Shown: in pieces, positions 14,815 through 63,417 of the stretch
Numbering within the stretch: position 1 is the stretch's first letter
How the letters are laid out: each line of letters begins with the position of its first letter
Source of the DNA: Actinomycetes bacterium
Lineage (GTDB): Bacteria > Planctomycetota > Phycisphaerae > JAACET01
Assembly (NCBI GenBank): GCA_030614915.1
Contig: JAUXAG010000006.1
Coordinates: forward strand, 1,263-65,262
Direction of reading: 5' to 3'
Length of the DNA stretch: 64,000 bases
Position numbers and translations under genes: made by a program
The notes under the pieces: generated by a model
What the model saw: only the letters and a program-made list of their open reading frames with translations
Told to the model about the DNA's origin: nothing
Database searches by the model: none

Positions 14815-14818
14815 GACG

Positions 14819-32899: not shown

Positions 32900-33916
32900 G
32901 TGATTGAGTTGCTGGTCATAATCTTGGTGGTGATCTTTTTGGTTCTGGAGGGTTTGTTCTCCGGTTTAGAGACTGCCATTATTTCCGCCAATCAGGCCAA
33001 GCTGCGGCTTTTGGCCTCGAAGGGGGACCGCCGGGCCAAACTAGCCCTGAAGCTTCTGGGCAAGAGTGAAGAACTCCTGGCCACCACCTTGGTGGGCAGC
33101 AATTTTGCCCTGGTCACCGGCACAACCCTGGCTACTTGGCTCATCGCCCGTTGGGTTCCGCCGCACTGGAACGAAAGTTTGGTTGCTATACTGATCATGA
33201 CCCCCGTAATCCTGGTCTGTTTCGAACTGATACCCAAATGCATATTCCGGGTTCACGCCGACAGCATTGCCTTGCACATTGCCGGGCCCTTGCGACTGGC
33301 TCAAAGATTGCTGTACCCAATAATCGCCATAGCTACCCGGATCACCCGGATGCTGCTTTGGCTGACCCGCAGGCCCAGCAGTACCGTGGACAGCGACGTT
33401 TTCCGCAGAGAGCTCAAGGCCTTGGCCCAGATTGGTGAAGAGCACGGCGTGTTCGCTCCCCAGACCCGGTTGATGCTTCAGAGCGTCTTTGATCTCGGCG
33501 ACCGTCTGGTCGGTACGGTTATGGTCCCTCTCAAGCGAATGGTCGCTGTGCCCTCCCAAGCTACCGTGGAGCAGGTCGAACGGCTCACCGCCCGCACGGG
33601 TTACTCGCATTTTCCGGTTTATCAGGACCGGCCCGACAACATCGTGGGTATTGTCAACTTGACCGATGTAATGTATGGTTCTACTTCGGCCGATGCCCCA
33701 ATCGAGCCCGCTGTCCGCCGTGAAGTTACCAGAATTCCTCCCAACAAGTCGGTTGGTGCTTTGCTGACGGAGTTTCGTTACAGCCAGATTCCCTTGGCTA
33801 TCGTAGTGGGCAAAGACGGTCGTGCTCTGGGATTGCTCAGTCCCCAGGACCTTTTAGAAGAGATAGTTGGTACCATCAGGGACGAGCGTGCACTTGGGCA
33901 GGATGGGGCTGACTGA
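32900..33916 (+). CDS. DUF21 + CBS pair protein (CNNM-like, lacks CorC_HlyC C-terminal domain)
   Basis: GTG start. VLEGLFSGLETAI DUF21 signature. Two CBS motifs. Confidence 0.8.
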   Translation: MIELLVIILVVIFLVLEGLFSGLETAIISANQAKLRLLASKGDRRAKLALKLLGKSEELLATTLVGSNFALVTGTTLATWLIARWVPPHWNESLVAILIMTPVILVCFELIPKCIFRVHADSIALHIAGPLRLAQRLLYPIIAIATRITRMLLWLTRRPSSTVDSDVFRRELKALAQIGEEHGVFAPQTRLMLQSVFDLGDRLVGTVMVPLKRMVAVPSQATVEQVERLTARTGYSHFPVYQDRPDNIVGIVNLTDVMYGSTSADAPIEPAVRREVTRIPPNKSVGALLTEFRYSQIPLAIVVGKDGRALGLLSPQDLLEEIVGTIRDERALGQDGAD

Positions 33917-47594: not shown

Positions 47595-49454
47595 TCAAGT
47601 CCTTTTAAACTGTTTTTCAAGTTCTGCCAGGCTCATCTTGAGGATTGTCGGGCGACCATGTGGACAGTTGCTCGAACGCTCAGCGAATTCTGCGTCAGCC
47701 AATAGCTGGGACATTTCCTCTTCGCTTAGTTTATCACCCGCCTTGACTGCCGCCTTGCAGGCCATGCTCGCCAGCACTTCTTCGAGAACCTGCTCAGCGG
47801 CGGAGTCTGTGGGCATTTCCACCAGCCGATCGACTATATCCTGGACCGCTGCCCCCGGATCTGCCCTGTCCAACATGGCCGGGAAGGCCTGTACAGCCAC
47901 GGCTGTCGGGCCGAAGTCCACCAGTTCAATGCCCACCTGCGATAAAATCTCCTGAACCTTATCCAGCATGGCACGCTGTTGATTGGTCAACTCCACCGGC
48001 ATGGGCACCAGCAATTGCTGCGAGGCCACCTGTCCCCGGCCGACCCTCTGGCTCAATTGCTCGTATAGAATCCGCTCGTGGAGGGCATGCTGGTCCACGA
48101 TGATAAGTCCATCGTCCGTCTCGGCTACCAGGTACATCCTGTGTAGCTGCAGGACCGCTCCCGCGGCTGTCGCCCGGATTGTTGGCTCTGCTTGGGCCTC
48201 CAGCCGTTCGCTTTGGGTCGTAGAAGATGAGCCCTGGCGGTCAGCTTCAAAGAGTTTGTTCAGTTCCTCCCTTAGCTCTTGGCCGGTCGGACCTTTATTG
48301 TGCCTGCTCCGGCTGTAGCCGCCGCTGCCTGGGCCAAAGGCCAGCGGAGCTTGGCTCGGAGGCGAGGCCTTGAGGAAATCGGCCACGGCTCGGCGGATCT
48401 GCTCGGTTTTTTCACCGTCAGCCTGGCCGCCCTCGCCCTGTTCTATGCGCATTCGGCTCGAGAGGTCGCTCTTGAGGAACCGCTCCCGAAGCGTCCCCAG
48501 CACTTGGGAGTGCACGGCATTGGAATCCCGGAAGCGGACCTCTATTTTTGTGGGGTGCACATTTACATCCACCATCTCCGGGGCCATCTGCAGATAGAGA
48601 AAGGCCACCGGAAAGCGGTTCGCTTCGATCAGCCCCCGATAGGCCTCGCGCACAGCATGTTGGATGAAACGGTCGCGGATATATCGCCCGTTGAGGAAGA
48701 AATACTGCCATTTGCTCGAAGTCCGGCTCATATCCGGCGGAGCCAGCAGGGCCTGGATTCTTATTCGGCGCTCATCGCTGTCGGCCTCGATTAGTGTCTG
48801 GGCCAGTTCGTCGCCGAAGAGGCCGGTGATTCTCTCCCGCAAGTTGGACGCCGCCGGCAGGTCCAGATTTTTCCTGCCATTGTGGCTGAGGGTAAAGTGC
48901 ACTTGGCTCTGGGCCAGGGCCACTCTGGTCAATTGCTCACAAACGTGCGACGTCTCCGTGGAGGTACCCTTAAGGAATTTTCGCCGGGCTGGCACGTTGA
49001 AAAAGAGGTCTCGCACCCAAACGCTGGTTCCGACAGCCGCGGCCGTCGGCCTGGGCTCATGGCTGTCGCCCCCTTCGCAACTCACTTCGTATCCTGCCTC
49101 GTTGTCAACGGTTCGGCTAACGATTCGGACCCGGCTGACGCTGGCAATGCTCGCCAGGGCCTCTCCTCGAAATCCCATGGTTTTGATGGCCAAGAGGTCT
49201 TCGGCGTTACTGAGCTTGCTTGTGGCATGGGCAGTCCAGGCCAGAGCTATGTCTTCACGGCCCATCCCTGCGCCGTCGTCGGTCACCTGGATGAGGCGTT
49301 TGCCGCCGTCCTCGACAGCCACGTCGATGCGCCCGGCCCCGGCATCAATGGCATTCTCCAGCAGCTCTTTGACCACCGAGGCCGGCCTTTCGACAACTTC
49401 CCCTGCGGCTATCTTGTTGACCAGGAGCTCCGGAAGTATTTGGATTTGTCCCAT
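47595..49454 (-). CDS. mutL: DNA mismatch repair protein MutL
   Basis: GHKL ATPase N-terminus ILPELLVNKIAAGEVVERPASVVKELLENAIDAGA. C-terminal dimerisation domain. Confidence 0.9.
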   Translation of the reverse strand: MGQIQILPELLVNKIAAGEVVERPASVVKELLENAIDAGAGRIDVAVEDGGKRLIQVTDDGAGMGREDIALAWTAHATSKLSNAEDLLAIKTMGFRGEALASIASVSRVRIVSRTVDNEAGYEVSCEGGDSHEPRPTAAAVGTSVWVRDLFFNVPARRKFLKGTSTETSHVCEQLTRVALAQSQVHFTLSHNGRKNLDLPAASNLRERITGLFGDELAQTLIEADSDERRIRIQALLAPPDMSRTSSKWQYFFLNGRYIRDRFIQHAVREAYRGLIEANRFPVAFLYLQMAPEMVDVNVHPTKIEVRFRDSNAVHSQVLGTLRERFLKSDLSSRMRIEQGEGGQADGEKTEQIRRAVADFLKASPPSQAPLAFGPGSGGYSRSRHNKGPTGQELREELNKLFEADRQGSSSTTQSERLEAQAEPTIRATAAGAVLQLHRMYLVAETDDGLIIVDQHALHERILYEQLSQRVGRGQVASQQLLVPMPVELTNQQRAMLDKVQEILSQVGIELVDFGPTAVAVQAFPAMLDRADPGAAVQDIVDRLVEMPTDSAAEQVLEEVLASMACKAAVKAGDKLSEEEMSQLLADAEFAERSSNCPHGRPTILKMSLAELEKQFKRT

Positions 49455-49540
49455 GGCTATCTGCTGCCGAGCAAGTCTTGAATTGTCTGCCTCTGTGAGC
49501 CATAGTATATGCCCGGTTCACCTGTTCGGTCAACGACGGA

Positions 49541-50203
49541 GTGTTTATGGCTGTATTACGTGCAGTTCTTTGTCCAGCCGGCCCGCAGGTTGCTCCGATT
49601 GAGCTAGCCAGTCGGGCAGTCTCCGCCGGTTGTCGGGCCATCGCCTTGGCCGATGGGGCCGAACTTTCCGGCGAAGCTCTGGCTGAGATTCGAGCCCTGG
49701 GAGTTGAAATTGAGTGTTTGAGTTGCCCTAAGCCGCTTTGCGGCGACTCACTGTCCGCCTTGGTCAGCCGAGCTGCCAAGCTGGAGATTCCTCACGTTTT
49801 GGTCCCCGCGGGCCCCGCCGAGTATAGCTACAGCCGGGCATATGACCAACTCTACAGCCTGTTGTACGAGATTGCCCCCCAGGCAGACCAGCTGGCTGTC
49901 AAGCTACTCGTCTGTGCCCCTCAGAAAGCCTTTCTCTTAAGTCCGCTGGAGGTTCGAGGGCTCATCGATGCGCTCAACTCGCCCAACGTCGGCTGCTGCT
50001 TGAGCTTTGACCACTGCTTGGCCCATGAGCTCTCCATTGTCCATTGGATTGGGATTCTCAACGCCCGGCTGTTCGCTTGCCGGATAAATTCGGCTTCTGA
50101 TATGGCTGGGGAGACGTTGGCTCTTTGGGCTAACCTTCCCACAGAGCCCTTTTGTCTTGCGACTGAGGCCTCTGTCGCTGCTGAATTGAGCCGAATGAAT
50201 TAG
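49541..50203 (+). CDS. Hypothetical protein (possible truncated TIM-barrel sugar-phosphate isomerase/epimerase-like)
   Basis: 220-aa ORF between convergent genes. Weak resemblance only. Confidence 0.3.
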   Translation: MFMAVLRAVLCPAGPQVAPIELASRAVSAGCRAIALADGAELSGEALAEIRALGVEIECLSCPKPLCGDSLSALVSRAAKLEIPHVLVPAGPAEYSYSRAYDQLYSLLYEIAPQADQLAVKLLVCAPQKAFLLSPLEVRGLIDALNSPNVGCCLSFDHCLAHELSIVHWIGILNARLFACRINSASDMAGETLALWANLPTEPFCLATEASVAAELSRMN

Positions 50204-50541
50204 CGGGCAAGCACCTGCTGAACCTTAGTTCCCTGGAAGACCACCACGGCATGGGGGTATTGCCAAATCTTGTGCTCGGGGTCCGCCGGCGAGTCCAGTA
50301 TGTATTCGGGTACGCCCCAGGCCAATATGACCTGCGATTGGCTGGCTCCCGGGCTGATCAGTTCAGCGCCAATGCCGGATTCGGCCTGCTCGGCCTCGGT
50401 GTCGGCTGTTACCTCCACCTGCTTGACTCGGCTCCAAGGTATCTTTGCCGCCGAGGTCTTCGAGCCGGCTTTCGTCCCGCAGCCTGTCGGCAGCAGACAG
50501 GCCAAACCAGCAAGAAATATGACAATTGGGTATACTCTCAT
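50200..50541 (-). CDS. Small putative lipoprotein translationally coupled to the secretin gene (pilotin-like position)
   Basis: Signal MRVYPIVIFLAGLACLLPTGC. Start overlaps the secretin stop (ATGA overlap at 50538-50541). Confidence 0.5.
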   Translation of the reverse strand: MRVYPIVIFLAGLACLLPTGCGTKAGSKTSAAKIPWSRVKQVEVTADTEAEQAESGIGAELISPGASQSQVILAWGVPEYILDSPADPEHKIWQYPHAVVVFQGTKVQQVLAR

Positions 50542-53237
50542 GGTTTTTCAAAAGCCCCGAATTCCATGGTTCGCCCAACGCGGCCGGGAAGACTCAGTTG
50601 CCGGGATATAGCCTCGCGCAGCTTGGCCATGGTTTCGCTCAGTTTCTTTTCGAATGCCGCGTAGTAATGCTCGGTATGGTAGAAGTATCTGGCTACTTCC
50701 CAGTCGATCAGATAGGTCCGCTTGGGGTCTATTACCGGGAAGGTCAGTTGGCGTCCGACCTTGAAGTGTTTCAGCCGGAATCCGTCGTCCGTCTTGTTCA
50801 GGTCGACGGTCCGCTTGAGGATCAGGGCAGCCTGGAGCCGTTCGATATCCTTGGCACTATTGATCAGTATAGTCCAGCGGGGCACACCGTTGACCGGCTG
50901 ATTGAGCTGGTAGAGTTTTTCGGCCCATTCGTCGCGGTCCTTCAGTTCCAGTACACGTATTTCAGGGATAGACTGCTTCAGGACATCCTCGGCTCGGGCC
51001 TGCTCGGGCACCTGAAAAGTCAGGGCCAGGGCCTGCTTAGAATGCCGCCTGAAGTACCAGTCCAGATTCCCTTTGCGCCGTCCGCAGAGTTCTTTGGTCA
51101 GGAACTCGACCTCGAACCCGCACGGCTCCGCTGGATTCGGCTTAAAGAGGATCAGGTTCGTGGGAGTAACTTTGTTCATCAATTTCAGTTTCTTGATAAT
51201 CTGATAGACCATCCGCTCGACCAGAATAGTCTCCCCGGGTACTTGGTCCTGGATTACGCTGTCGAACGGTGTCCGCTCCGCGAGTTCGGGCCTGCTTCGG
51301 ATCAACTGCCTGGTCTGGGCCATCAGCTCGTTCAGCTCGGCGTTGCTGCGCAGGAAAGATAGGTCGAAAACATCCTGAATGCGAATGCGGTAGATGGCCC
51401 GGAAGAGCAAAGGATCAATTTCGTCAAACAGAGCACTATCCTTGGGCATGGCTCGATTGACGGCGATTTTTTCCGGCAGAACGTAGGGCGTGAGTACGAT
51501 GATAACTTCCCGCCGTTCCGTGCTGCTTTCCTTGACCTTGAACAACCAGCCGATTATGGGGATCCTGGAGATGAAGGGAATACGGTCGGACTCAGTCGAG
51601 CTTCGTTTGGAGATCAGGCCACCTATGATCAGCGGCGTGTTGTTGCGGATCCGGGCGTAGGTCTGCACCTGACGAGTCAGCACCACCGGAGCCTGGGCCT
51701 GGGCTGCCAGGCTGTTGGGGTCGATCTGTATGCGATACGGCGAAGTAGCATCGATGTCGGAGACGCTGGCGTCTATCTGGAAGGAAACGTCCTCGCTGTC
51801 GGAGCTTATCCGCGGGCGAAGGTTCAGAACAATACCAACAGAGATGTATTGCACCTTCACGTTGGTGGTAAGTTCGGTTATCACCGTCGAAGAAACCGGG
51901 ACCTCCGTGGTCACCCGGATGCGGCATTGCCGATTGTCCAAGGCCAGGATGCTCGGCCGGCTTAGAACCTGGGCCTTACCCTCGCGGATCAGGGCTCGAA
52001 GCGTCGCACGATATGTGCCTATTGCCCGTAACATTACGGGCGTGCTGATGTTATAACTGAGGCCGAAAATCAGCGGACGAACTGTTTCACCCGACGCCGT
52101 TTCAAAGCTGGCAGAATGAGTCGGGTTTGGCCCGCCCCCGGTCCAAGTGTGCTCCAGCCCCAATTGCTTCATGCCAGTTTCAGAGACCTCAAGGACCATT
52201 CCCTCTATAAGTAGCTGCCGGGCGGGCACGTCGATCTGGCCGCTCAGCAGTTCCAGCAGGTGAGCCAGGGCTGCCCTTCCGGACGAGCTGGGATCATAGC
52301 TGATCAAGAGTCTCTCCAGCGGACCGCCCGAGGTGGAGGACGTGAACTCGCTGACCTCCTCTCCCGGAAGCCTAATGCCGAAGGCACCCTTCTTGATCGC
52401 CGCTGTGCCCGCCAGTGAGGCCTTCTGCGGGTCCGGCATCTTGCAGACCATCGGTAGATTCTTGCGCTTTATCAGTTGATCATATTTAAAGCTCTCGGGG
52501 TCGTCGATTACGTAATAGCCCATGACTCTCAGGGTTTGCAGGGCCTTGTCGCCTTCCATATAGTTAAGCTGATATATCCAGGTGGGCAAATCTCGTGGCA
52601 GCATTTCCTGGGGCTGGGCGGCTGCATCCTGCAGGACCGCCTGGACCATCTCCAGCCCAGAGTTGATGTCCGGGTTGGCCTCATACTTGTCCCCAGCTAT
52701 TTGGTAGCCCTGGACGAAGAGTCGATCCGGCTGGGTTTCCAAGAGCTGGATTCCTATTTGCAGGATTCGCTTACCGCTGGGCGTGGCCAGCTCATAGTTG
52801 ATCGCCAGCTCGAAGTCAGCGGCCGCCTCGCTTGCCAGGTCCGGCACTTGATCCCCTCTCAGAAGAACATAGGCTTTGGCGGAGCGGATTTGTTGGCCGA
52901 CGACCCGCAGCAATTCTTCGAGCTGTTGTTCGCTCATATCCGCCGGCAGCACTATGGACTTACCGGTCAAGACCGGCTGACCGTTTGCCGGGCTGGCCGA
53001 GTTCTGCTCGGGTTTATCCAGGCTATCGCCTGGAGCCGGCGAAGCCTTTTGAGCTTTAGCAGTCTGGCCCGGCTGATCGCCGGCGGGCGGGGGTTCGCCT
53101 TGGGCCCCTTTGCCGCAAGGCAGGCACAGAAGCACAGCGAAGAGCCAAACCGCCGGCAGGGCAGCCTTGCCGGGCGCTGGGCTCTCAATAGAAGCCTTTG
53201 GTTCTGCCATAGGATCTCTGTATTTACGCACTGTCAC
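50538..53237 (-). CDS. Secretin-family outer-membrane channel protein (GspD/PilQ-like) with Pro-rich N-terminal linker and ~300-aa C-terminal extension
   Basis: Signal peptide. N-domains. Secretin C-domain motif ...PLIIGGLISKRSSTESDRIPFISRIPIIGWLFK...VIIVLTPYVL. About 300 additional residues follow the secretin core. Confidence 0.8.
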   Translation of the reverse strand: MTVRKYRDPMAEPKASIESPAPGKAALPAVWLFAVLLCLPCGKGAQGEPPPAGDQPGQTAKAQKASPAPGDSLDKPEQNSASPANGQPVLTGKSIVLPADMSEQQLEELLRVVGQQIRSAKAYVLLRGDQVPDLASEAAADFELAINYELATPSGKRILQIGIQLLETQPDRLFVQGYQIAGDKYEANPDINSGLEMVQAVLQDAAAQPQEMLPRDLPTWIYQLNYMEGDKALQTLRVMGYYVIDDPESFKYDQLIKRKNLPMVCKMPDPQKASLAGTAAIKKGAFGIRLPGEEVSEFTSSTSGGPLERLLISYDPSSSGRAALAHLLELLSGQIDVPARQLLIEGMVLEVSETGMKQLGLEHTWTGGGPNPTHSASFETASGETVRPLIFGLSYNISTPVMLRAIGTYRATLRALIREGKAQVLSRPSILALDNRQCRIRVTTEVPVSSTVITELTTNVKVQYISVGIVLNLRPRISSDSEDVSFQIDASVSDIDATSPYRIQIDPNSLAAQAQAPVVLTRQVQTYARIRNNTPLIIGGLISKRSSTESDRIPFISRIPIIGWLFKVKESSTERREVIIVLTPYVLPEKIAVNRAMPKDSALFDEIDPLLFRAIYRIRIQDVFDLSFLRSNAELNELMAQTRQLIRSRPELAERTPFDSVIQDQVPGETILVERMVYQIIKKLKLMNKVTPTNLILFKPNPAEPCGFEVEFLTKELCGRRKGNLDWYFRRHSKQALALTFQVPEQARAEDVLKQSIPEIRVLELKDRDEWAEKLYQLNQPVNGVPRWTILINSAKDIERLQAALILKRTVDLNKTDDGFRLKHFKVGRQLTFPVIDPKRTYLIDWEVARYFYHTEHYYAAFEKKLSETMAKLREAISRQLSLPGRVGRTMEFGAFEKP

Positions 53238-53346
53238 TGTATGGCGATTATCGGTCCAGGCTTGGAATTCGCTTGAGGAAAAGGATTATCGGTCTTTTGC
53301 GAACCGGCCAGTGGCTTTAGAAACTCACACATTGGGAGTCGCCATA

Positions 53347-55095
53347 CTAGCCGGAGCCGTTCGAGCGGTCGAAATATTGGCAGGTAGTGCCCCCGCCGTC
53401 CGGGGCCGGCCCATCGCCCATACGCAGCAGATGCCTCGCCCCGGAGATAATCTCCTGCCGGTGAGTTATCAGCAAGGTCGTGCGGTCGGCCATAATGGGT
53501 TCTATGGCCTTGAGGATGGCTCGTTCGGATTCCGGGTCCACCGAGGCAGTGGCCTCATCCAGGATCAGTATCCTCGGCTCCTTTAGGATGGCCCGGGTCA
53601 GGGTTATCCTCTGTCTTTCTCCCCGGCTCAGTTCGACACCACCTTGCCCGATCACCGTTTGATAGCCGTCCCGCAGACGGCAAATGAAGTCGTGGGCGTT
53701 GGCCCTTTTGGCCGCCGCCTCGATCTGCTCCCGCCTGGCCGTCGGACGAGCGTAACGGATATTCTCCAGGATACTGCGATTGAACAGGAAGCACTCCTGA
53801 AAAGCCACCCCGATCTCCTGGCGGAGCTTAGCCAGTCGAATGTGCCGATAGTCGAGACCATCGATCAGAATGCTGCCCGAAGTCGGATCAAACATTCGCA
53901 GCAACAGGTTGACCAGCGTGCTCTTGCCGCATCCGGACGGACCGGTAATGACCAGGGTCTGGCCGGCAGGTACCCGGAAGCAGACGTCCCGCAGGATTGG
54001 TTGACCATCGCTCGGGTAACAGAACGAGACGTTCCGGAACTCGACATCCCCGCGGATACCTGCGACCTTTGCCAGGGGTTCGGTTTCTTTTGGTGTCGGT
54101 CTAATGTCAAGTATGGCCCAGACCCGCTCCAGGCTGGCTAGGCTGCGTTGAAACTTCGCAGCCTCGCTGATTATGCCCCCCACGCGGGTATAGGCCAATC
54201 CCAAGCATATCCAGAACATAATGAATGTCCCGCTGAAGTCGCGCCAGAGTACTCCCAGGTTGATTACCAGGTGAGCGACGTAGGCGAGGACGATGAGGTA
54301 GCCGAGTCCGATAAGCAGGTCGGAGATAATCTTTTGTCTGACGTGGTAGACTCGCTGGCTGATCTGGGCAGCGCGGGTTTTCTCGATGGACTCTTCGAAC
54401 TTGGCGGCCTCGTGGTCTTCACGTCCAAAGCCTTTGACCACCTCGGCGGCAGTAAAACTCTCCACCAGGTCGCCGTGCACCACGGACAACTGTTCGGCGA
54501 CGGCCCTGCTGGAGAGTTTGATGCCCGCCCGCATCCGGTAGTAGGCTATCACCTGTACGGGAAGTACAGCGCTGGAGACCAGGGCCAGCCGCCAGTCGGT
54601 CAGAAACATAATCAGCAGCAGCAAGCAGACCGTCAGGGCGTCGGCGCCCATGGTACCCAGGCTGTCGCGAAAGAATTCCTGGATACTGGTTACATCGCCC
54701 ATCAATCGGCTGGTGAGTTTTCCCGGTTTGAATCTCCTATAAAATTCCAGGCCCAAACCCTGGATGTGCTCGAAAAGGCTGCGACGCAAATCAAAGGCCA
54801 GCCCTTCGCTTATTTGCACCGACCAATAGCGGGAGGCGAAAAACAACAGGTTCCGGGCGACATACACGCCGCCTACTCCCCCAAGCAGCCAGAGCAGCAA
54901 ATATCCGTTCTTGTTCTCGAAGGCCTCAATAATGTTTTTGATCAGCAGAGGAAGGCATATATTTGCCCCACTGAGCACTATTATGGTCAGGAGGATAACA
55001 GTGATAAGGGCCGAATGCGGCCAAAGATAGGGCAGCAGCCGCCGCACCATCGACCGACTGGTGGATGTAACGTCTTGCCGAGAAGTCACTTGCAA
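53347..55095 (-). CDS. ABC exporter, fused permease-ATPase half-transporter (MsbA-like)
   Basis: Six TM helices. Walker A GPSGCGKST. Signature LSRGERQRI. Walker B ILILDEATS. Confidence 0.85.
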   Translation of the reverse strand: MQVTSRQDVTSTSRSMVRRLLPYLWPHSALITVILLTIIVLSGANICLPLLIKNIIEAFENKNGYLLLWLLGGVGGVYVARNLLFFASRYWSVQISEGLAFDLRRSLFEHIQGLGLEFYRRFKPGKLTSRLMGDVTSIQEFFRDSLGTMGADALTVCLLLLIMFLTDWRLALVSSAVLPVQVIAYYRMRAGIKLSSRAVAEQLSVVHGDLVESFTAAEVVKGFGREDHEAAKFEESIEKTRAAQISQRVYHVRQKIISDLLIGLGYLIVLAYVAHLVINLGVLWRDFSGTFIMFWICLGLAYTRVGGIISEAAKFQRSLASLERVWAILDIRPTPKETEPLAKVAGIRGDVEFRNVSFCYPSDGQPILRDVCFRVPAGQTLVITGPSGCGKSTLVNLLLRMFDPTSGSILIDGLDYRHIRLAKLRQEIGVAFQECFLFNRSILENIRYARPTARREQIEAAAKRANAHDFICRLRDGYQTVIGQGGVELSRGERQRITLTRAILKEPRILILDEATASVDPESERAILKAIEPIMADRTTLLITHRQEIISGARHLLRMGDGPAPDGGGTTCQYFDRSNGSG

Positions 55096-55280
55096 TTCCC
55101 CGTCCGGATATCTACGACTCTTGCGGTCGGTTGGGCCGACTCGCTGAGTTATTTTACCTTAGCTGCGCGGAGATTCAAACCAAACCCCCCCTTTAATTCT
55201 GGGCATTTGGGCTGGCTAAATATAAAAAGCAGTCAGTCAAAGACGCCTGCCTTTGAGATTATTTGTCCTGGCCAGTCGTT

Positions 55281-56150
55281 TCAGCCGTCCAGACCGTTGG
55301 CTCGCGGGGAGAACAGCTGGTCAGTCAGCCCCCGGTTGAAACGCACATCCAGGTATCTGTAGCGGCTGATAAGATTACCAGCAGTATCGAAGCCTTCCGT
55401 TCTGGTCGGCAGGAGATATTCCTTGTCTAAATAGATGTATAATACTGCATACAAGGTATCGTAGCCCTTGTCCATGGGCAGTTTGCGACGCAAGACCAGA
55501 CACTCTCGGCCGTCCAGTACTTTGCTATTCAGGTATTCGATAACCAAGTCACCGTTTTTGTCCGCTTCTTCGTAAGTGCTAACCATATCATCCAGCACTC
55601 GGCCGAAACCGAACCCAGCTGGTGTGCGCAGTGATGATTTCTTCAGTCTCGGATCATCGATGTCCCGACGCACGGTGCGCACCAGCAGGCCGGCAAGCCC
55701 GGCCGGATGCACCAGTATCGTCTTGTTGCCGTCCTTTTCAACGTACAGAAGAGTATCCACCGGACCTTTTGGCTCTTGCCAGTTCATCAATACGGAGAAT
55801 GGGGCTTCCTTGAAGTAAACGCGAATCTTCTCGGGGTCCTTGAAATGCCCGTTGATTCGCTCTTGTTTGATAAAAGTGCAGGTGTAATCCCGTACGGATT
55901 TGTGGTAGCTCTCCTGGGCGAGCCTTAATAGGCCCAAAGGATCTTCCCCGGCCAGGCGCTCGAGTTCAACCTGGATTTGCATTTCTTCACTGTAGAGCGG
56001 AGCCTCTTCTGCAGCAAGCGCCTGGTAGTGATAGCTCCGGTCGACGCAGCGGTTGTTTGAGGCCAATACAATCAAAACCGTGCCAATAGCCAGGCCCAAT
56101 CCGATTCGACAGCACCAGTTGCTTCCTTGCTTACGTAGTTTTCGCCACAT
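55281..56150 (-). CDS. Hypothetical membrane-anchored periplasmic protein (possibly DUF1571/LolA-fold-like)
   Basis: N-terminal TM. About 250-aa soluble domain. Family assignment is tentative. Confidence 0.5.
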   Translation of the reverse strand: MWRKLRKQGSNWCCRIGLGLAIGTVLIVLASNNRCVDRSYHYQALAAEEAPLYSEEMQIQVELERLAGEDPLGLLRLAQESYHKSVRDYTCTFIKQERINGHFKDPEKIRVYFKEAPFSVLMNWQEPKGPVDTLLYVEKDGNKTILVHPAGLAGLLVRTVRRDIDDPRLKKSSLRTPAGFGFGRVLDDMVSTYEEADKNGDLVIEYLNSKVLDGRECLVLRRKLPMDKGYDTLYAVLYIYLDKEYLLPTRTEGFDTAGNLISRYRYLDVRFNRGLTDQLFSPRANGLDG

Positions 56151-56452
56151 CAGTATTTCCCTCAGTTTACGGAAAAAGGGCTGGCAGTTTTTCCTTTTCC
56201 CTGCTCTGGTTTGTGCTGTCGGCCAAGTAGCTTTACCGACTCGATAAAGTGGACCTGGTAAAAATCGACAATTACCACCAAAAAGCTTTAGTCCTTGTAG
56301 TCATGCCCTTTTGTCCTCAGCGGTCAGCAAATTATCAGCACCGGGACTGCTGGGGACAAGTTAATTTCCCAACGGTTGGCAGCGAGAAGGCTCGTCGCCT
56401 GGGACCCACGGCGTCTAACCCGTTGGGACCAAAGCAGCTAGGCGCAAAAGCC

Positions 56453-56483
56453 GGGTCGCCGCAAACCTTGTCCGCGGCGACCC
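56453..56483 (-). terminator. Intrinsic terminator-like hairpin 3' of the HTH-receiver regulator gene
   Basis: gggtcgccgc (56453-56462), 11-nt loop, gcggcgaccc (56474-56483). Minus-strand reading is followed by UUUUG. Confidence 0.55.
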
Positions 56484-56534
56484 TTATCAGAAACAGTACC
56501 GGGCACAATCTGCGTCCGGTGCTGTGGACGTTTA

Positions 56535-57131
56535 TTATGCTAATCTGAGATTGCCGGCAACTCGCTGTCTGGCGAGACTAACCAACTCTACTATGAAGCT
56601 GCTCAACCTGGACTCATCCAGGGCAAGGTTCAGGCAGGCATCGAAGCCGTAATCCTCCAGCTCCCGCTCCTGCTGGCCGTTAGTCAGGGCAACCACTTTG
56701 GTTTTTTGCAAGTCCGCTATGACCCTGATATTCCTGGGAATTTCCCGTCTACTGGGCGAGTCGGCTTCAACCTCCCAGAAGATTATTTGTGGCTTTAGTC
56801 GTTCAGCGAAGATCCCCGCGGCAAAGGCGGAGTCGGCCGATTGAACTTCGAAGTTGTTTTCTGCCAGCGTCTTTTCCAGAGTTGCGTTGTTTGAGGTCCC
56901 CTTGCTGACGATCAGGGCCCGTTGTTTATCGGACTCCAGAACGCCCCGCGGAATTCCGTGTTTATCCATGAAGAGCAGCAGTTCGGCTCGCGGGATTCGC
57001 CGATCTTTGCTGCCGGGAATTCGGTAGCCGCTGAGCTCTCCGGAGTCGAACCACTTGGAGACCGTTCGCGGGGCAACCTTACAAATCCGGGCCACTTCGC
57101 CGGTAGTCAGAATGTCTCTGCTTTTAGCCAT
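56535..57131 (-). CDS. Excisionase/MerR-type HTH (HTH_17) fused to atypical receiver-like domain (paralog of 22766-23383)
   Basis: LTTGEVARICKVAPRTVSKWFDSGELSGYRIPGSKDRRIPRAELLLFM followed by a REC-like region with ...PQIIFWEVEADSP, where no Asp sits at the phospho-acceptor position. Start taken at MAKSRD; the track starts at 57314. Confidence 0.65.
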   Translation of the reverse strand: MAKSRDILTTGEVARICKVAPRTVSKWFDSGELSGYRIPGSKDRRIPRAELLLFMDKHGIPRGVLESDKQRALIVSKGTSNNATLEKTLAENNFEVQSADSAFAAGIFAERLKPQIIFWEVEADSPSRREIPRNIRVIADLQKTKVVALTNGQQERELEDYGFDACLNLALDESRLSSFIVELVSLARQRVAGNLRLA

Positions 57132-57355
57132 TTCCTCTACCGATTCCGCCCCACCTGTATTATCTTTCCTGCAGAGCGTGTTCGCCGGTCGTTGAATCGG
57201 TCTTTGACGGCGGGAATTTAGTAAAAAACTCCGAAAATCGCCCGATCGGTCTGTCCGGGGTCCGGTTTTAGGCAGATACCTGCCCAGACCCGGAGCTTTT
57301 GCCGCGGACTTCAAGATGCTATGGATGGGTTTAGCGTTATAGGACTTGCCTGGGG

Positions 57356-57757
57356 CTAGCGGACCCCCGGCAGCACCAGGACCTGGAACTTGCGCGAGCG
57401 GGGCCCATCGAACTCACAGAAGTAAATGCCTTGCCAGGTACCCAGGACTAACTTGCCGGTCTGAACCGCTACGCTCACGGACGAACCCACCAGCGAGGCC
57501 TTGCAGTGAGCGTCCGAATTGCCCTCGCTGTGCCGGTAGTTCCCGTGTTGGGGTACTAAGCGTTCCAGGTTCTCCAGCAGGTCAGCTACCACCGAGGGGT
57601 CTGCATTTTCATTGATGGTCACCCCGGCTGTGGTATGGGGAACGAAAATCATGGCCAAGCCATTTTCCAACCCGCAGTCCTGAATCGCCTTTTGAACCTC
57701 CCCGGTGATATCCACCAACTCACAGCGACCGTGGGTGCGAAGCGTTATACTCTTCAT
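57356..57757 (-). CDS. YjbQ/UPF0047 family protein (secondary thiamine-phosphate synthase-like)
   Basis: ITLRTHGRCELVDITGEV...GLAMIFVPHTTAGVTINENADP...GTWQGIYFCEFDGPR conserved pattern. Confidence 0.8.
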   Translation of the reverse strand: MKSITLRTHGRCELVDITGEVQKAIQDCGLENGLAMIFVPHTTAGVTINENADPSVVADLLENLERLVPQHGNYRHSEGNSDAHCKASLVGSSVSVAVQTGKLVLGTWQGIYFCEFDGPRSRKFQVLVLPGVR

Positions 57758-57839
57758 TGCTTATTTGCCTGGCCTTGCGCTTTTGAATCCTGACATCCTG
57801 ACCCTTGAGCCTTGCTGTTGGTTATGTTAGCTTGGGGGT

Positions 57840-58763
57840 ATGGTTCAAAGCAAGCAAGAACTGCGGGATTTACTCGACAGGGCCCGGATAGAGCTTCGCT
57901 CCAATCTGGGCCAAAACTTCCTCATCGACCAGAACCTCATGCACCTGCTGGTCAACAGGGCCAACCTCCAGCCGGACGACACCGTCCTGGAGGTCGGCGC
58001 CGCCACCGGGTCACTGACCGAGCTTCTCTCCGAGCAATCCGGAGCCGTCGTGGCTGTGGAGATTGACCGGCGGCTCATGGAAATTGCCAAGCAAAAGCTA
58101 AGCGGCCGGGACAACGTGGACCTGCTCTGTCGTGATGCCTTATTCGAGTCCAAGCTGGACATGACTGTGGCCCTGAGGCTGACCGACAATCTGGCAAGGC
58201 TCGGCGGACGGTTGTTGCTGGTGGCCAATTTGCCCTACAAGCTGGCCAGCCGTCTGCTCATGGAGTGTATCTGCGGGGAATTGCCTTTCACCCAGTTGTA
58301 TTTTACGGTGCAACGCGAAGTGGCCGAACGCATACTTGCCCCCCCCGGAACCAAAACCTATGGCCTGTTGAGCATTGTTTTCCAGGCGTCCGGACGCGTA
58401 AAACGCTTGCGCAAATTACCGCCCTCGGTGTTTTGGCCCCAGCCGGAGGTAGACTCGGCCATGCTGGCCTGGGCCCGGGCCAGCGAAAATACCCCCACTG
58501 TTCTTTCCGGCAGGGGAACCATGGGCTCGAACTTACCTCTGGCCATCGACGATTTGATTACCCTCAAGGAAGTCGTCAAGGTATTGCTCCACTACCGCCG
58601 CAAGAAGATAAGTTCGTGTATTGCTCTTAAGCAGGAATCTCCCCTGCGGGTAACCGATCTGAACCGGGCCTTGGCACTTACCGATATCGACCCCAATCTT
58701 CGCGGCGAGCAGCTTTCTCCCGAGCAATACGTAGCCCTGGCCCAAGCCGTCAACATGCACTAA
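57840..58763 (+). CDS. rsmA: 16S rRNA (adenine1518/1519-N6)-dimethyltransferase
   Basis: LGQNFLIDQNL...VLEVGAATGSLTE SAM motif. LVANLPY motif. Confidence 0.9.
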   Translation: MVQSKQELRDLLDRARIELRSNLGQNFLIDQNLMHLLVNRANLQPDDTVLEVGAATGSLTELLSEQSGAVVAVEIDRRLMEIAKQKLSGRDNVDLLCRDALFESKLDMTVALRLTDNLARLGGRLLLVANLPYKLASRLLMECICGELPFTQLYFTVQREVAERILAPPGTKTYGLLSIVFQASGRVKRLRKLPPSVFWPQPEVDSAMLAWARASENTPTVLSGRGTMGSNLPLAIDDLITLKEVVKVLLHYRRKKISSCIALKQESPLRVTDLNRALALTDIDPNLRGEQLSPEQYVALAQAVNMH

Positions 58764-59739: not shown

Positions 59740-59850
59740 CCCGGCAAGAAATACTTGGCCAAACCGGGAACCAAATGGGTATCCTGAGCGTCAGTTAGAA
59801 TGGGGACGGTGCAACGTAGCAGTTCATTTTTTCATGGGAGGACCGTAACG

Positions 59851-62800
59851 ATGAAACGCGTAAGAAAATCACTTATGGCGATTGTCCTAGCCGGAGTGGT
59901 CTGTTTAGCCCTGTTTGTCAGCCTTTGGCTGATCGCTAGCAGTGTAGATGACAAGGACAAGGACCGTGGCTGGGTAACAAAATGGCATGGGAAGGAAACG
60001 GAGACCGTTAGTATCGCTGACATGGCAGGTGGCAGTATTGGTGTCGGCCTTGTCAAAGAAGAAAACGGCGTTGTCGAGATTGACATATATGATACTTACT
60101 ACGACGCCTACGAGTGCAGAATTATTGCCATAAGCAAGTGGCGGGGAAAGACTTATACTGGTAAGCTAACAAGTGAAATAAAACCTGATAAGGGGGCAAG
60201 GTTTAATAAGGCAAAATTTGAAGATATAAGCCTTAAGAAAATCAAAGAGTTTAGGTTTCAAATTAGGCCGCAAAGCGACCGCCCGACGCAGCCTGGTATT
60301 GCCTGGGGGCAACCTGTCGGAGGTGTCCAACTAGGCATCGATTTTGATCTTGGTGATCGGCAGTATCGTACTGGGGAATTGGTCACCTTCAAAGTCTACG
60401 TTCGCAATACCGGGGACAAAGAGGTCAAGTTCATACACTATGTACCGGTGGGCGATCCGGCTCGGGAGAGAGTGTACCTCTTAGCGTGGTCTCCCAGCAT
60501 CACAGATGTCACGGGTAAGCGTTTGCCTCTTTTTGACCCTCTGCGGAACTTTCATGCTCAGCGACGTCAGCTAAGGCTGCCGCCCGGCACGACAAGCCTT
60601 GTTGGGATTGTGTCTCTGCAACTCACCTCGCGTCTAGACGAGCGTCCAGACGAGAAATCGAGCGATCCACATATCTATCTTGAGCCCGGCCAATATCGGG
60701 TGAGCCAAACTTATCGGTTTGATGAGGCACCCGAGGCCACATGGCACGGCGAGTTAACCACTGGAGAACTGAGACTATCCGTACAATATGAGCAGCCCGC
60801 CACGCAGCCGGGGGAAGAATGGGGTAGGCCGGTCCAAGGCGTGCGATCCCGCCTGCACGCCGCGAAACCTATCTGGAAGGTCGGTGAAATTCCGGCCTTA
60901 ATCCTGGAGGTCCAGAATCAGAGCGAAATGCCATGGGCTGTTCGTCCACCTGAGGCCGAGGGAAGGCCGCAGGTCCAAGTTGACGGAGTGTGGTACGAGC
61001 GGACGAGGTCGGAGTTCAGCGGGTACAGGAGGGGTATGGTTACGCGCGTTCAGCCCGGCGGAACGTCCCAGGAGATCAACCTAGTGCTCAACAACGCCTG
61101 GCGTTCGCGCAAGGACGGTCAGCGTTTGAGCCTATTCCCCGGCAAACACCTGATCCGGGCGACGTTTAAGGCAGATCAGTTTCCTCCGGGCGAAGACGCT
61201 GGCAAGTCGCCTATTCTAATAACAGGTGCGGACCAAGTACAAGTGGTGAGCAACCCGCTCGAGATCGAAATCCTCGCGGACGGTTGGGACCCCACTCAGG
61301 CCATTCTGGCCATCAACCACTGGGATGGGCTGCGCAGACTGCTTTCCGAAGTGGACCCGGAACGATTGCAGCAGCGATATGCCCAGATGGTTACTCATGA
61401 CAACGTGCTGAAAAATGCCCTCCAGGGTCTTCGCCACACCAGTTGGTATGAGACACATTCTCGAACAGGCCCAAACATTCTTGAGGAACTGCGTAGGGTT
61501 ATCCAAGTCCGTCCGGGTCCGAGAACAGGTCTTCTCACTATCACCGTCACCGGGTCGGACAAGGACGAACTTGCCGAAATCGCCAACGTCATTGCCCAGG
61601 CGGCGGTGGACAATGCCGTAGTTCCAGACGTCCCTGAGTTTCGCCAGGAGATAGAGCGCCTGCAGCAAGAACTGAAGACTCTTGAAACTAGGGTTAAATC
61701 TGCTGAGGACAGCGACCGGAAGGCAGCAAAGGAACAGATTTGTGAGCTTAGAATCCAACTGCTGCCCCTCATGCTGTTTCTCCATAGGCGTCCATTTAGC
61801 ATTCGGCTGCCAGCGGCGCCTCATCTAGCTAACCCAACTTCCATCTCGCTTGAGCATGCGCAGTCCGCTAGCGCGATGAGCAATCCCGTTGACATCGAAA
61901 TCCAGCCCGCCACGCAGTCGGAGTCGAATTGGCTCAGGCGTATCAAAAAGCCGGAAGATCGAGGCACCCTCCAGGACATTTATGAACAAATCAGACAGCC
62001 CCAGAGGCGTAGCAAGGTGGATGAACTCTGGGTAGTTCCAGGCGGACCCCATATCCTTGAATTCCACAGAGAAGGTCGTCTCGATCAATGGCTCGACGCC
62101 CTGGCGATCAAGAAACTGAAGGGTTTCTCCAGCGAAGACGACGTTTGGCTGCTGTTTCGCAGCAAGCAGTTGAACGACAACGATCGCATGTGGATTGAGC
62201 GTATCGAGAAAAAGGCAGACCAGATTGTCGTGTTAACACACCGGGCCCTCTGGCGAGGCGAATATAAGAAAAATGCAACCTGGTATCCGATATTCGGGGT
62301 CAATCTTGGCAAGCTGCCCGCCGGGAACTATCGAGCGAACTGGACAATCCTGCCGTATCATTTCACTGAGTTCGACGCGAAGGGTTGGCCTAGGGGCGCA
62401 AAGTTGACCGAAGAGAAGCCCACAGAGCTGAACGCGGCGTTCACTGTGGAACCGTCACCCGGAGCGGCCGCGCAGGCGGACGAAGAGTGGGGCAAGCCCG
62501 TCGAGGGCGTGCAAGTAAGGTTGCGAGCCGACAAGAAGGTTTGGAAGGCAGGTGAATTTCCAATTGTCAAGGCCGACGTTCGCAATACAGGACGCCGGGA
62601 TCTCTATTTACCATATTGCTACTTCCAAGCCGAGGTCGAAGTAGATGGCAGTTTGTATCGACACACTGGTCCTTCAAATATTCTTAGGCCCGACCATGGT
62701 CCATACGTCAAGCATCGTGAAGATATAGAAATTTATCTTTATCTGCGTTGTTGGACAGCTGTTAATAATCTTCGTCAGGAGCTTCGACTCAAACCGGGTC

Positions 62801-63417
62801 GGAATATGATCCGAGTTGCCTTCTACGCTGAGCCGGATAATGGTCAGCGCATCCGCGTTGTCAGCAACCCCGTCGAGATCGAAATCCAACCCGCTACGCA
62901 GCCGGCGGAAGAGAAGGACAAGTTAGTTTGGGGGGTTGTTGGCGATGGTATCCAATGTGCCGTTCGCCCTGTGAAGCCATCATTTGCACCCAACGAAGAC
63001 ATTGTTGCGGATGTTATGTATCAGAATGTATCGAACGATACGATTACAGTGTGTGTCTACCCTGACCCTTATTACACTTGGCTGCATTTGTACGTAAGAG
63101 ACCCGGTGAACGGTATGATAGTGATGGTCGGACAGCATGCAAACGGGATTCGCCGCCCCTTAAGACTGTCGGATTTCGTAAGACTTCGGCCAGGCCAGAC
63201 GGCTTCATTTCGCCAAGTTATAGCTCACAGTAAGAAGAGCCAGCCTGAGCCCGGCAGCTACTTTTTGCAGGCTGAGATCAACAAGATCAACCGGATGGAC
63301 GTACACCTTCTCGGGCTTGAAGAGTTTTGCAAGACGAATGGTATCCCCAAGCCCTGGTGCAGGGGGATTGAAAGCGGCAAGACCCCTGTAATGATCGCCA
63401 CGCAGCCGCCGGAATAA
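59851..63417 (+). CDS. Large membrane-anchored repeat protein (1188 aa): N-terminal TM, four ~150-aa beta-rich modules joined by (E/Q)PATQP linkers, central Wzz/PCP-like segment + coiled coil + second hydrophobic helix
   Basis: Start MKRVRK with GGAGG RBS 8 nt upstream. Modules begin PTQPGIAWGQPVGGVQLGI / ATQPGEEWGRPVQGVRSRLHA / AAQADEEWGKPVEGVQVRLRA / ATQPAEEKDKLVWGVVGDGIQCAV and end VVSNP(L/V)(E/D)IEI. Central ...LLTITVTGSDKDELAEIANVIAQAAVDNAVVPDVPEFRQEIERLQQELKTLE resembles the chain-length-determinant fold. Confidence 0.8.
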   Translation: MKRVRKSLMAIVLAGVVCLALFVSLWLIASSVDDKDKDRGWVTKWHGKETETVSIADMAGGSIGVGLVKEENGVVEIDIYDTYYDAYECRIIAISKWRGKTYTGKLTSEIKPDKGARFNKAKFEDISLKKIKEFRFQIRPQSDRPTQPGIAWGQPVGGVQLGIDFDLGDRQYRTGELVTFKVYVRNTGDKEVKFIHYVPVGDPARERVYLLAWSPSITDVTGKRLPLFDPLRNFHAQRRQLRLPPGTTSLVGIVSLQLTSRLDERPDEKSSDPHIYLEPGQYRVSQTYRFDEAPEATWHGELTTGELRLSVQYEQPATQPGEEWGRPVQGVRSRLHAAKPIWKVGEIPALILEVQNQSEMPWAVRPPEAEGRPQVQVDGVWYERTRSEFSGYRRGMVTRVQPGGTSQEINLVLNNAWRSRKDGQRLSLFPGKHLIRATFKADQFPPGEDAGKSPILITGADQVQVVSNPLEIEILADGWDPTQAILAINHWDGLRRLLSEVDPERLQQRYAQMVTHDNVLKNALQGLRHTSWYETHSRTGPNILEELRRVIQVRPGPRTGLLTITVTGSDKDELAEIANVIAQAAVDNAVVPDVPEFRQEIERLQQELKTLETRVKSAEDSDRKAAKEQICELRIQLLPLMLFLHRRPFSIRLPAAPHLANPTSISLEHAQSASAMSNPVDIEIQPATQSESNWLRRIKKPEDRGTLQDIYEQIRQPQRRSKVDELWVVPGGPHILEFHREGRLDQWLDALAIKKLKGFSSEDDVWLLFRSKQLNDNDRMWIERIEKKADQIVVLTHRALWRGEYKKNATWYPIFGVNLGKLPAGNYRANWTILPYHFTEFDAKGWPRGAKLTEEKPTELNAAFTVEPSPGAAAQADEEWGKPVEGVQVRLRADKKVWKAGEFPIVKADVRNTGRRDLYLPYCYFQAEVEVDGSLYRHTGPSNILRPDHGPYVKHREDIEIYLYLRCWTAVNNLRQELRLKPGRNMIRVAFYAEPDNGQRIRVVSNPVEIEIQPATQPAEEKDKLVWGVVGDGIQCAVRPVKPSFAPNEDIVADVMYQNVSNDTITVCVYPDPYYTWLHLYVRDPVNGMIVMVGQHANGIRRPLRLSDFVRLRPGQTASFRQVIAHSKKSQPEPGSYFLQAEINKINRMDVHLLGLEEFCKTNGIPKPWCRGIESGKTPVMIATQPPE

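Follow-up and report, generated by a model that had tools for sequence, protein, structure and literature searches.

In a 64,000-nucleotide stretch of contig JAUXAG010000006.1 (assembly GCA_030614915.1, Phycisphaerae; hereafter, the window), genes for an ATP-binding cassette (ABC) half-transporter and a secretin lie next to each other within a run of five open reading frames (ORFs) at positions 50200-57131. An earlier reading of this DNA, made from the letters alone (the sequence-only reading), described the five as co-oriented genes on the minus strand, and the ORF list of the window bears this out:

50200..50541, minus strand: small predicted lipoprotein, 113 aa, signal peptide ending in LPTGC (ORF list)
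50538..53237, minus strand: secretin, 899 aa, GTG start (Pfam, Foldseek, full-length family alignment)
53347..55095, minus strand: ABC half-transporter, 582 aa (Pfam ABC_membrane and ABC_tran)
55281..56150, minus strand: membrane-anchored DUF1571 protein, 289 aa (Pfam)
56535..57131, minus strand: HTH_17 regulator, reaching 57314 if an upstream TTG is the start (Pfam)

A database protein (P0001) is identical to the window secretin, except that its start lies 9 codons further in, which gives 890 aa. Scanning 49400-57900 for promoters and terminators revealed nothing that delimits operon boundaries.

The secretin and its C-terminal domain

The secretin consists, in order, of a signal peptide, a low-complexity linker, an N-terminal alpha/beta domain, an N1-like module, an N3-like module, the core and a C-terminal domain of ~290 aa, which were placed as follows:

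53097..53162, minus strand: predicted signal peptide, aa ~26-47, LPAVWLFAVLLCLPCGKGAQG (read from the translation)
52620..52967, minus strand: N-terminal periplasmic alpha/beta domain, aa 91-206 (AlphaFold2 [AF2] model, pLDDT 75-86)
52164..52583, minus strand: two beta-alpha-beta modules, N1/N3-like, aa 219-266 and 308-358 (AF2 secondary structure)
51477..51995, minus strand: secretin core, beta-barrel and gate, aa 415-587 (Pfam PF00263)
50589..51446, minus strand: family-specific C-terminal domain, aa ~598-883 (alignment, AF2 model)

Pfam detects the core (PF00263, 138.3 bits versus a cutoff of 27.5, E = 2.4e-40) at aa 415-587 only, i.e. it ends at residue 587 of 899 and leaves ~310 residues C-terminal to it, in line with the ~300 residues past the core that the sequence-only reading had counted. 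Foldseek matches the protein to InvG, GspD, PilQ and pIV (E from 5e-14 to 8e-9), and structurally, the core is that of an orthodox, genuine gated secretin. In the family alignment (A1; 20 sequences, full length), the motifs LSRPSIL, GIxLNxRP, NNTPxIIGGL and REVIIVLTP of the core are invariant. The domain at aa 91-206 has no Pfam match; weak Foldseek matches to the N-domain of BamC (E ~1e-2) presumably fall on this domain.

The window secretin scores below the cutoffs of the established secretin families, with 158.4 versus 351.35 for TIGR02517 (GspD), in an alignment that begins only at aa 334, and 103 versus 284.35 for TIGR02515 (PilQ); it also falls below the MshL and SctC cutoffs. At E <= 0.1, neither Secretin_N (PF03958) nor PF21305 was detected in this protein, whereas these domains are present in canonical secretins from the same homologue search, and Pfam identifies no AMIN domain in it. 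When 5.8 billion proteins were searched with the window secretin, 23 aligned over 71-99% of the query, with the C-terminal extension included, whereas canonical GspD and PilQ matched 20-29%, that is, the core alone. In species-representative genomes, one for each species, 465 loci related to the secretin were found; among the best 80 of these 465, the match runs through the C-terminal domain in all cases, and nearly all come from Phycisphaerae or other Planctomycetota, with a few from Opitutales and other Verrucomicrobia. These comparisons set the window secretin apart as a member of a distinct family of considerable size.

The extension that sets this family apart is conserved end to end in 20/20 aligned members, with 22 invariant positions. 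It opens with the invariant motif IPKDS..FD..LFRxxYRIRxxDVFDL and contains the further invariant motifs VPGE and LN...FxVGR..P. When 1.84 billion proteins were searched with a profile of the extension alone, 403 cluster representatives were retrieved (205 at E <= 1e-30). In every case, the domain forms the end of a secretin or of an ABC::secretin fusion; the host proteins measure ~700-1,000 aa or ~1,420-2,040 aa, and the short matches that we examined are fragments starting within the secretin domain. The C-terminal domain is a hallmark of the family. The AF2 model predicts a compact alpha/beta fold (pLDDT 83.6, pTM 0.79) that has no Pfam family, no sequence relative in the PDB and no significant fold match in Foldseek (best E = 0.12); pilotins, S-domains and TPR proteins of solved structure do not appear among the matches. 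By these three comparisons, the extension is not one of the known fused pilotin, TPR or S-domains.

Some family secretins (P0117, P0126, P0130 and P0194) carry extra domains, namely SPOR, CBM9-like or NTF2-like (Cds6_C) domains after the C-terminal domain, or an N-terminal AMIN domain, the AMIN carrier being the distant family member P0126. SPOR and AMIN are periplasmic, cell-wall-binding domains. A periplasmic, cell-wall-facing location of the C-terminal domain fits these architectures because some members append SPOR or have AMIN.

A scan for signal peptides and hydrophobic segments, a heuristic that involves no trained predictor, located equivalent N-terminal or internal signal peptides or lipoboxes across the secretin homologues. 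In the window secretin, the cysteine context (...LLCLPCGKG) differs from the canonical lipobox [LVI][ASTVI][GAS]C, and because of this, its signal peptide is probably of the signal peptidase I type. Many homologues have clear lipoboxes (WVAGC, FLGC, LLAGC), so that many unfused members of the family would be predicted liposecretins.

Linkage between the ABC exporter and the secretin

ORFs were called in 86 related loci and searched with the five window proteins; 84 loci passed the tally filter. The ABC transporter and the secretin form a single ORF (1,433-1,707 aa) in 35/84 loci. The ABC gene is directly upstream of the secretin gene in 30 loci (gaps from −27 to +77 bp, including many 4-bp overlaps) and directly downstream in one; no ABC gene adjoins the secretin in nine, of which L052 looks like a split fusion, and in another nine the contig end is too near to judge. 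Of the species-level loci (from 80 genomes), 70 extend far enough upstream to be judged; the two genes are fused in 33 of them and abut in 29, i.e. in 62/70, or 63 when L052 is counted. Altogether, the pairing recurs in ~90% of related loci. In a similarity tree of the secretin parts, fused forms are intermixed with split ones (~11 parsimony changes); the genes have thus repeatedly fused or separated without losing their linkage. The sequence-only reading had proposed that an ABC exporter is coupled to the secretin and that the locus is not a fragment of a type II secretion system (T2SS) or type IV pilus (T4P); the 35 fused and 31 abutting loci, with their states interleaved on the tree, speak for this proposal.

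In the fusions, the first of which (P0010 and P0011) were found to combine ABC_membrane, ABC_tran and Secretin in one protein among the first matches, the two ABC domains, the secretin and the C-terminal domain occupy one uninterrupted ORF. Such ORFs are present in finished chromosomes, i.e. CP066225.1 (strain ZRK32), CP087563.1, OY771506.1 and OY763327.1, and two metagenome fusions (L001 and L002) lie in unrelated neighbourhoods. In 35/35 fusions, a hydrophobic segment follows 30-100 aa past the nucleotide-binding domain. This segment would provide the topology needed to place the secretin part in the periplasm. It ends either in an AXA-like sequence (AEPAFAQ, PALAQD, PARAQE) or in a lipobox (LFAGC, LVAGC, LLGGC), and because these endings resemble cleavage sites, the fusion polyprotein is suggested to be cut by signal peptidase I or II.

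Neighbour clustering around the 84 loci showed no other conserved gene family, the commonest neighbour occurring in 10 loci. These observations support the ABC-secretin pair as the conserved core of the locus, with the two components predicted to be functionally coupled.

Classical secretin machinery was searched for in the window and in the flanks of the related loci. No T2SSE, T2SSF, PilM/N/O, HlyD, TolC or Zot family and no phage gene families were identified by Pfam among the scanned window ORFs, which included ~40 other plausible ORFs of at least 133 aa; tblastn with a T2SSE ATPase query found nothing in the window, and the prepilin motif (GFTLIE type) does not occur in its six frames. 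The earlier statement that the window holds no T2SS/T4P ATPase or platform is borne out by these three scans. Around the homologues (84 loci), no platform, alignment or pseudopilin family, HlyD or TolC is conserved. GspE/PilB-type ATPases are not consistently co-located with the pair either: a T2SSE-type ATPase gene is near it in 4/86 related loci, three of which come from one clade.

The ABC protein consists of a 6-transmembrane-helix ABCB/type IV exporter domain followed by a nucleotide-binding domain (ABC_membrane, aa 32-295; ABC_tran, aa 368-517). The top NCBIfam match is MsbA (TIGR02203), with 358.3 bits versus a cutoff of 602, and NF008381 scores 309 versus 867, HlyB (TIGR01846) 290 versus 725.55 and PrtD (TIGR01842) 211 versus 510; the MsbA, TAP, HlyB, glucan and HepA exporter families all score well under their own cutoffs. 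The PDB relatives TM287/288, Sav1866 and MsbA give ~280-290 bits each. By these scores, the linked ABC transporter is a generic ABCB/type IV-fold exporter. The 67 secretin-linked ABC transporters retain the Walker A motif, the H-loop and the Walker B motif (DE, including the catalytic Glu), and essentially all have the signature LSRG[EQ] (LSRGE in the window) versus the usual LSGGQ. The linked ABC transporters thus form a coherent, active-looking subfamily, for which LSRG[EQ] could be used as a diagnostic marker. No C39 or other cargo-recognition domain was found on the linked ABC transporters, including the longer ones, whose N-terminal 'extensions' may be artefacts of permissive start-codon choice.

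Given that two carrier genomes (L035 and L036) encode, ~6 kb away, a second ABC exporter that is more MsbA-like (444-455 bits versus 314-327 bits for the linked one), the linked ABC transporter is unlikely to be the housekeeping MsbA flippase. This identity was rejected on the scores (358 versus 602; paralogues 444-455).

Several arrangements near the pair are limited to single clades. In L001 (2957-4021), L037 (5914-6978) and L044 (5456-6562), a gene for a PilT-like, 354-aa ATPase of the T2SSE family lies ~0.8 kb upstream of the fusion on the same strand, with a ferredoxin gene on the opposite strand between the two; this arrangement occurs in one clade only. In 8 loci (L024, L025, L026, L030, L032, L033, L040 and L042, a list assumed from the adjacent-ABC cluster, with L030, 4441-7413, confirmed directly), the pair is preceded at a distance of ~250 bp by a co-oriented gene for a subtilase of ~990 aa (Peptidase_S8 and P-domain). 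This clade-limited subtilase is either a candidate cargo or a matter of clade synteny. In L045 (3189-4262), L057, L062, L067, L072, L084 and possibly L074, a clade of secretins without an adjoining ABC gene, an MscS-type channel gene (~353 aa; MS_channel domains confirmed by Pfam on the L045 gene) begins 0-71 bp past the secretin stop. Possibly, the secretin teams up with more than one kind of inner-membrane partner, but synteny within this clade alone could also account for the arrangement.

Accessory genes and surroundings

The other three genes of the run do not share this conservation. The 289-aa protein matches DUF1571 (107.6 bits, E = 7.7e-31) and, below threshold, LolA_like PF17131 (23.7 bits versus a cutoff of 30). 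Its gene is upstream of the ABC gene only in L003, L004/L008 and L007, and homologues of the small lipoprotein occur only in the same loci. In the window, the start of the lipoprotein gene overlaps the secretin stop by 4 bp (ATGA), an arrangement predictive of translational coupling to the secretin, and the same 4-bp overlap is present in each of these relatives. The relatives are 70-83% identical, and their whole region is syntenic with the window, including MutL, Macro and MetG; because of this, the linkage of DUF1571 and the lipoprotein to the pair is uninformative. The small lipoprotein, which has no Pfam or PDB match, would be a clade-specific accessory gene, and the DUF1571 protein may be a clade-specific accessory or a mere neighbour. 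The sequence-only reading noted that the lipoprotein gene sits where pilotins are often encoded; for this putative pilotin, the Pfam and PDB comparisons gave no resemblance to a solved one. A BamE-like identity of the lipoprotein, considered on the basis of its C-terminal motif, was not supported by Pfam or by the PDB profile search, and we make no such claim. Of the ABC-secretin-lipoprotein triplet, whose synteny the sequence-only reading had proposed to check, the ABC-secretin pair is conserved, whereas the lipoprotein is kept only in close relatives.

The regulator has an HTH_17 domain by Pfam and a receiver-like C-terminal half without a Response_reg match. A paralogue with both HTH_17 and Response_reg, with which this C-terminal half aligns, is encoded at 22766-23383 on the plus strand (23% identity over 183 aa). 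Searches with the window proteins found no counterpart of the regulator in any related locus, and the 70% identical relative L003 has an Rrf2 gene in the upstream region instead. The regulator is probably outside the module. Thus, the proposed five-gene unit under this regulator is not supported, given that the regulator lacks a counterpart and that DUF1571 and the lipoprotein are confined to a narrow syntenic clade.

The run is embedded among housekeeping genes such as MutL, MetG and KsgA. The lipoprotein gene and mutL lie 745 bp apart, compared with just 84 bp in the relative L003, and the space is filled by a plus-strand ORF of 220 aa (49541-50203) with a weak match to xylose-isomerase-like TIM barrels (AP_endonuc_2, 34.5 bits), possibly an insertion or a gene remnant. 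Further along the plus strand (59800-63417), the window encodes a 1,205-aa protein that has a membrane anchor at its N-terminus, no Pfam family and internal repeats of the type '...IEIQPATQP..EEWG.PV.GV..RL.A.K..WK.GE.P...'. Three genes for CNNM/CorC-type (CBS-domain) transporters are found at 11549-12913, 31511-32884 and 32900-33916, the latter two adjoining each other. The closest relatives of the window are metagenome-assembled genomes labelled Actinomycetes or Actinomycetota (L007, DAOVKO010000037.1; L004/L008, JAACET010000035.1). These labels are probably wrong because the window carries genes of diderm and Planctomycetota type (13804-15337 and 50200-56150), namely those for the secretin, LptE, a BamD-like TPR lipoprotein and DUF1571.

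A candidate export apparatus, its alternatives and known systems

We consider it somewhat probable, on comparative-genomic grounds, that the functional unit is a two-component, envelope-spanning ABC-secretin export apparatus. In such an apparatus, the ABCB-type half-transporter, presumably a homodimer in the inner membrane, would drive the ATP-dependent exit of cargo from the cytoplasm or the inner membrane, and a multimer of the dedicated secretin would form the gated outer-membrane pore. The N-terminal periplasmic domains of the secretin (aa 91-206 and the two beta-alpha-beta units) would bridge the periplasm, a role played by the membrane-fusion protein in type I systems and by GspC and the platform in type II systems. 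In many relatives, both components would be made as one polyprotein, with the internal signal peptide or lipobox threading the secretin part into the periplasm, where it is probably cleaved off. The C-terminal domain would sit in the periplasm, close to the outer membrane or the cell wall, where it probably acts in assembly, anchoring or gating and would replace the S-domain/pilotin arrangement. The docking of the ABC transporter with the secretin, the direction of transport, the cleavage of the polyprotein and the role of the C-terminal domain are the parts of this scheme that we infer. Given the size of a secretin pore, the cargo seems more likely to be an unfolded protein or another polymer than a small molecule. 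In its broadest form, the proposal is that of a new class of double-membrane secretion system, mainly in Phycisphaerae and some Verrucomicrobia, in which an ABC transporter drives cargo straight through a secretin with no membrane-fusion protein, TolC, pseudopilus or GspE-type ATPase, the two components often being made as a polyprotein split at an internal signal peptide, and the C-terminal domain serving as an assembly or gating module; this wider claim we put forward tentatively, at slightly less than an even chance.

Several points weigh against an export apparatus of this kind. The support for contact between the ABC transporter and the secretin is comparative-genomic, and docking to the secretin vestibule is speculative, given that the periplasmic loops of ABCB proteins are very small. 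The stoichiometry is awkward: a fusion supplies as many ABC protomers as secretin protomers, yet the former would form a dimer and the latter a ring of ~12-15. About 8 loci with adequate flanks have no adjoining ABC gene, which indicates that the secretin can exist without a neighbouring ABC transporter, and one such clade is that with the MscS-type gene after the secretin. Furthermore, neighbour clustering across the 84 loci revealed no conserved cargo candidate gene beside the pair, and the ABC transporters carry no C39 or other domain that would point to a cargo.

An unlikely alternative is that the ABC transporter is a biogenesis or quality-control factor of the secretin, one that extracts the (lipo)secretin or releases it from the inner membrane, or flips a lipid for its assembly; the secretin would then serve a T2SS, T4P or competence machine encoded elsewhere, or act alone. 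Secretins are toxic when inserted into the inner membrane, many family members are predicted liposecretins, and a fusion with an internal signal peptide would hold both proteins together at the moment of export; the LolA-like DUF1571 protein and the small lipoprotein flanking the pair in the clade of the window, and the PilT-like ATPase gene in another clade, would also be in keeping with such a factor. However, DUF1571 and the lipoprotein are absent in all other clades, and a T2SSE ATPase gene lies close to the pair in no more than the 4 loci mentioned above; the Lol extractor is an ABC transporter of the MacB type, we know of no protein extraction by ABCB-fold exporters, and an intact transporter linked to one structural protein over hundreds of species seems a costly chaperone. 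We give still less weight to a role in outer-membrane biogenesis or lipid trafficking, whereby an MsbA-like flippase would hand a lipid, glycolipid or lipid-linked polymer to a secretin exit, assisted in the clade of the window by the LolA-like carrier and the small lipoprotein. MsbA is indeed the top-scoring named family for the ABC transporter, and glucan and HepA-type exporters score well too, but the MsbA score is far under the cutoff, and type I secretion, TAP and multidrug families score alike; at least two carrier genomes hold a better MsbA candidate. The sub-threshold relationship of DUF1571 to LolA_like would speak for such a role. The wide spread of the family within one class is what would be expected of a core envelope function, but LptE and a BamD-like protein are encoded in the window, so the standard routes of lipopolysaccharide and outer-membrane protein biogenesis appear to be present, and a lipid-conducting secretin is not known to us.

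The direction of transport is not fixed by any sequence data, and exporter-fold ABC importers exist (e.g. YbtPQ and IrtAB), as do secretins that mediate DNA uptake in competence. Conceivably, then, the secretin could be an entry pore, as PilQ is for DNA, and the exporter-fold ABC transporter an importer of a macromolecule or a siderophore-like compound. We deem this improbable, a little more so than lipid trafficking: ABCB-fold proteins are mostly exporters, the ABC transporters examined have no periplasmic or substrate-binding domain, no binding-protein gene is conserved nearby, and secretin-mediated uptake needs a retracting pilus, for which the window scans found no genes. Least credible, to the point of being nearly dismissed, is chance: a housekeeping ABC gene beside a stray T2SS/T4P secretin, with the fusions as artefacts of assembly or gene calling. 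Adjacency within the clade of the window, where the whole neighbourhood is syntenic, indeed proves nothing alone, but the two genes also adjoin across Phycisphaerae and Verrucomicrobia in unrelated contexts, and the secretin, below the GspD and PilQ cutoffs and without Secretin_N, does not look like a stray member of those families. The reading of the fusions as artefacts was rejected in view of the 35 independent uninterrupted ORFs, some of them in finished genomes, and the consistent internal signal peptides in all of them.

Full-text literature searches turned up no account of an ABC transporter paired with a secretin or of the present secretin family; a preprint on the type IV filament (TFF) superfamily mentions ABC transporters in another context only. 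To our knowledge, every characterised secretin works with a machine of the type IV filament kind, a type III injectisome or a filamentous-phage ATPase, and classical ABC-driven routes through the Gram-negative envelope rely on TolC together with a membrane-fusion protein. The architecture thus seems new, its function being predicted from comparative genomics. If the proposed export apparatus is real, it would mean that the secretin pore was recruited independently once more, and with one or two genes, it would be the simplest envelope-spanning secretion architecture yet. It would also be an entry point to the export of material in Phycisphaerae and other bacteria of the Planctomycetes-Verrucomicrobia-Chlamydiae group, and it offers a naturally occurring polyprotein that carries a signal peptide internally as well as a 290-aa domain with no Pfam family, PDB sequence relative or significant fold match. 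The system is compact and present in cultured strains such as ZRK32, and is therefore directly testable.

Comparison with known systems places the pair between several of them. As in type I secretion (HlyB/HlyD/TolC), an ABCB-fold half-transporter would be the sole ATPase, coupled to a dedicated outer-membrane channel in a small, self-contained gene set, and the HlyB model scores about equal to MsbA on the linked ABC transporters. However, no HlyD adaptor or TolC channel was found in the window or is conserved in the related loci, the outer-membrane part is a secretin, and the window ABC transporter has no C39 or C39-like domain, carries the LSRG[EQ] signature and does not reach the HlyB and PrtD cutoffs. 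MsbA has the same architecture and length, but its cutoff is not approached (358 versus 602), carrier genomes hold a more MsbA-like paralogue, and we know of no case in which MsbA is joined, by fusion or as a pair, to an outer-membrane protein.

At the outer membrane, the secretin shares with GspD and PilQ of T2SS and T4P the core fold, an N3-like module before the core and a Sec-type signal peptide, and some family members have the AMIN domain or lipobox of PilQ and liposecretins. It differs in falling below the GspD and PilQ cutoffs, in lacking Secretin_N and in having a C-terminal domain of ~290 aa instead of a short S-domain, and the window encodes no GspE/PilB ATPase, GspF/PilC platform or (pseudo)pilins. 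The lipobox directly before the mature secretin in many members, and in several fusions, suggests self-piloting, as in the liposecretins HxcQ, BfpB and TcpC; the window secretin, however, lacks a canonical lipobox, and the known liposecretins belong to T2SS or type IVb pili and have neither the C-terminal domain nor an ABC partner. The filamentous phage proteins pIV and pI/pXI offer a comparably minimal system, with no pilus and with one membrane-anchored P-loop ATPase as the partner of the secretin, and pIV is among the structural matches; here, by contrast, the ATPase is a full ABC transporter rather than Zot/pI, no phage genes are found at the locus, and the family is chromosomal and class-wide. 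By analogy, then, the pair would resemble type I systems at the inner membrane and type II, T4P and phage systems at the outer membrane.

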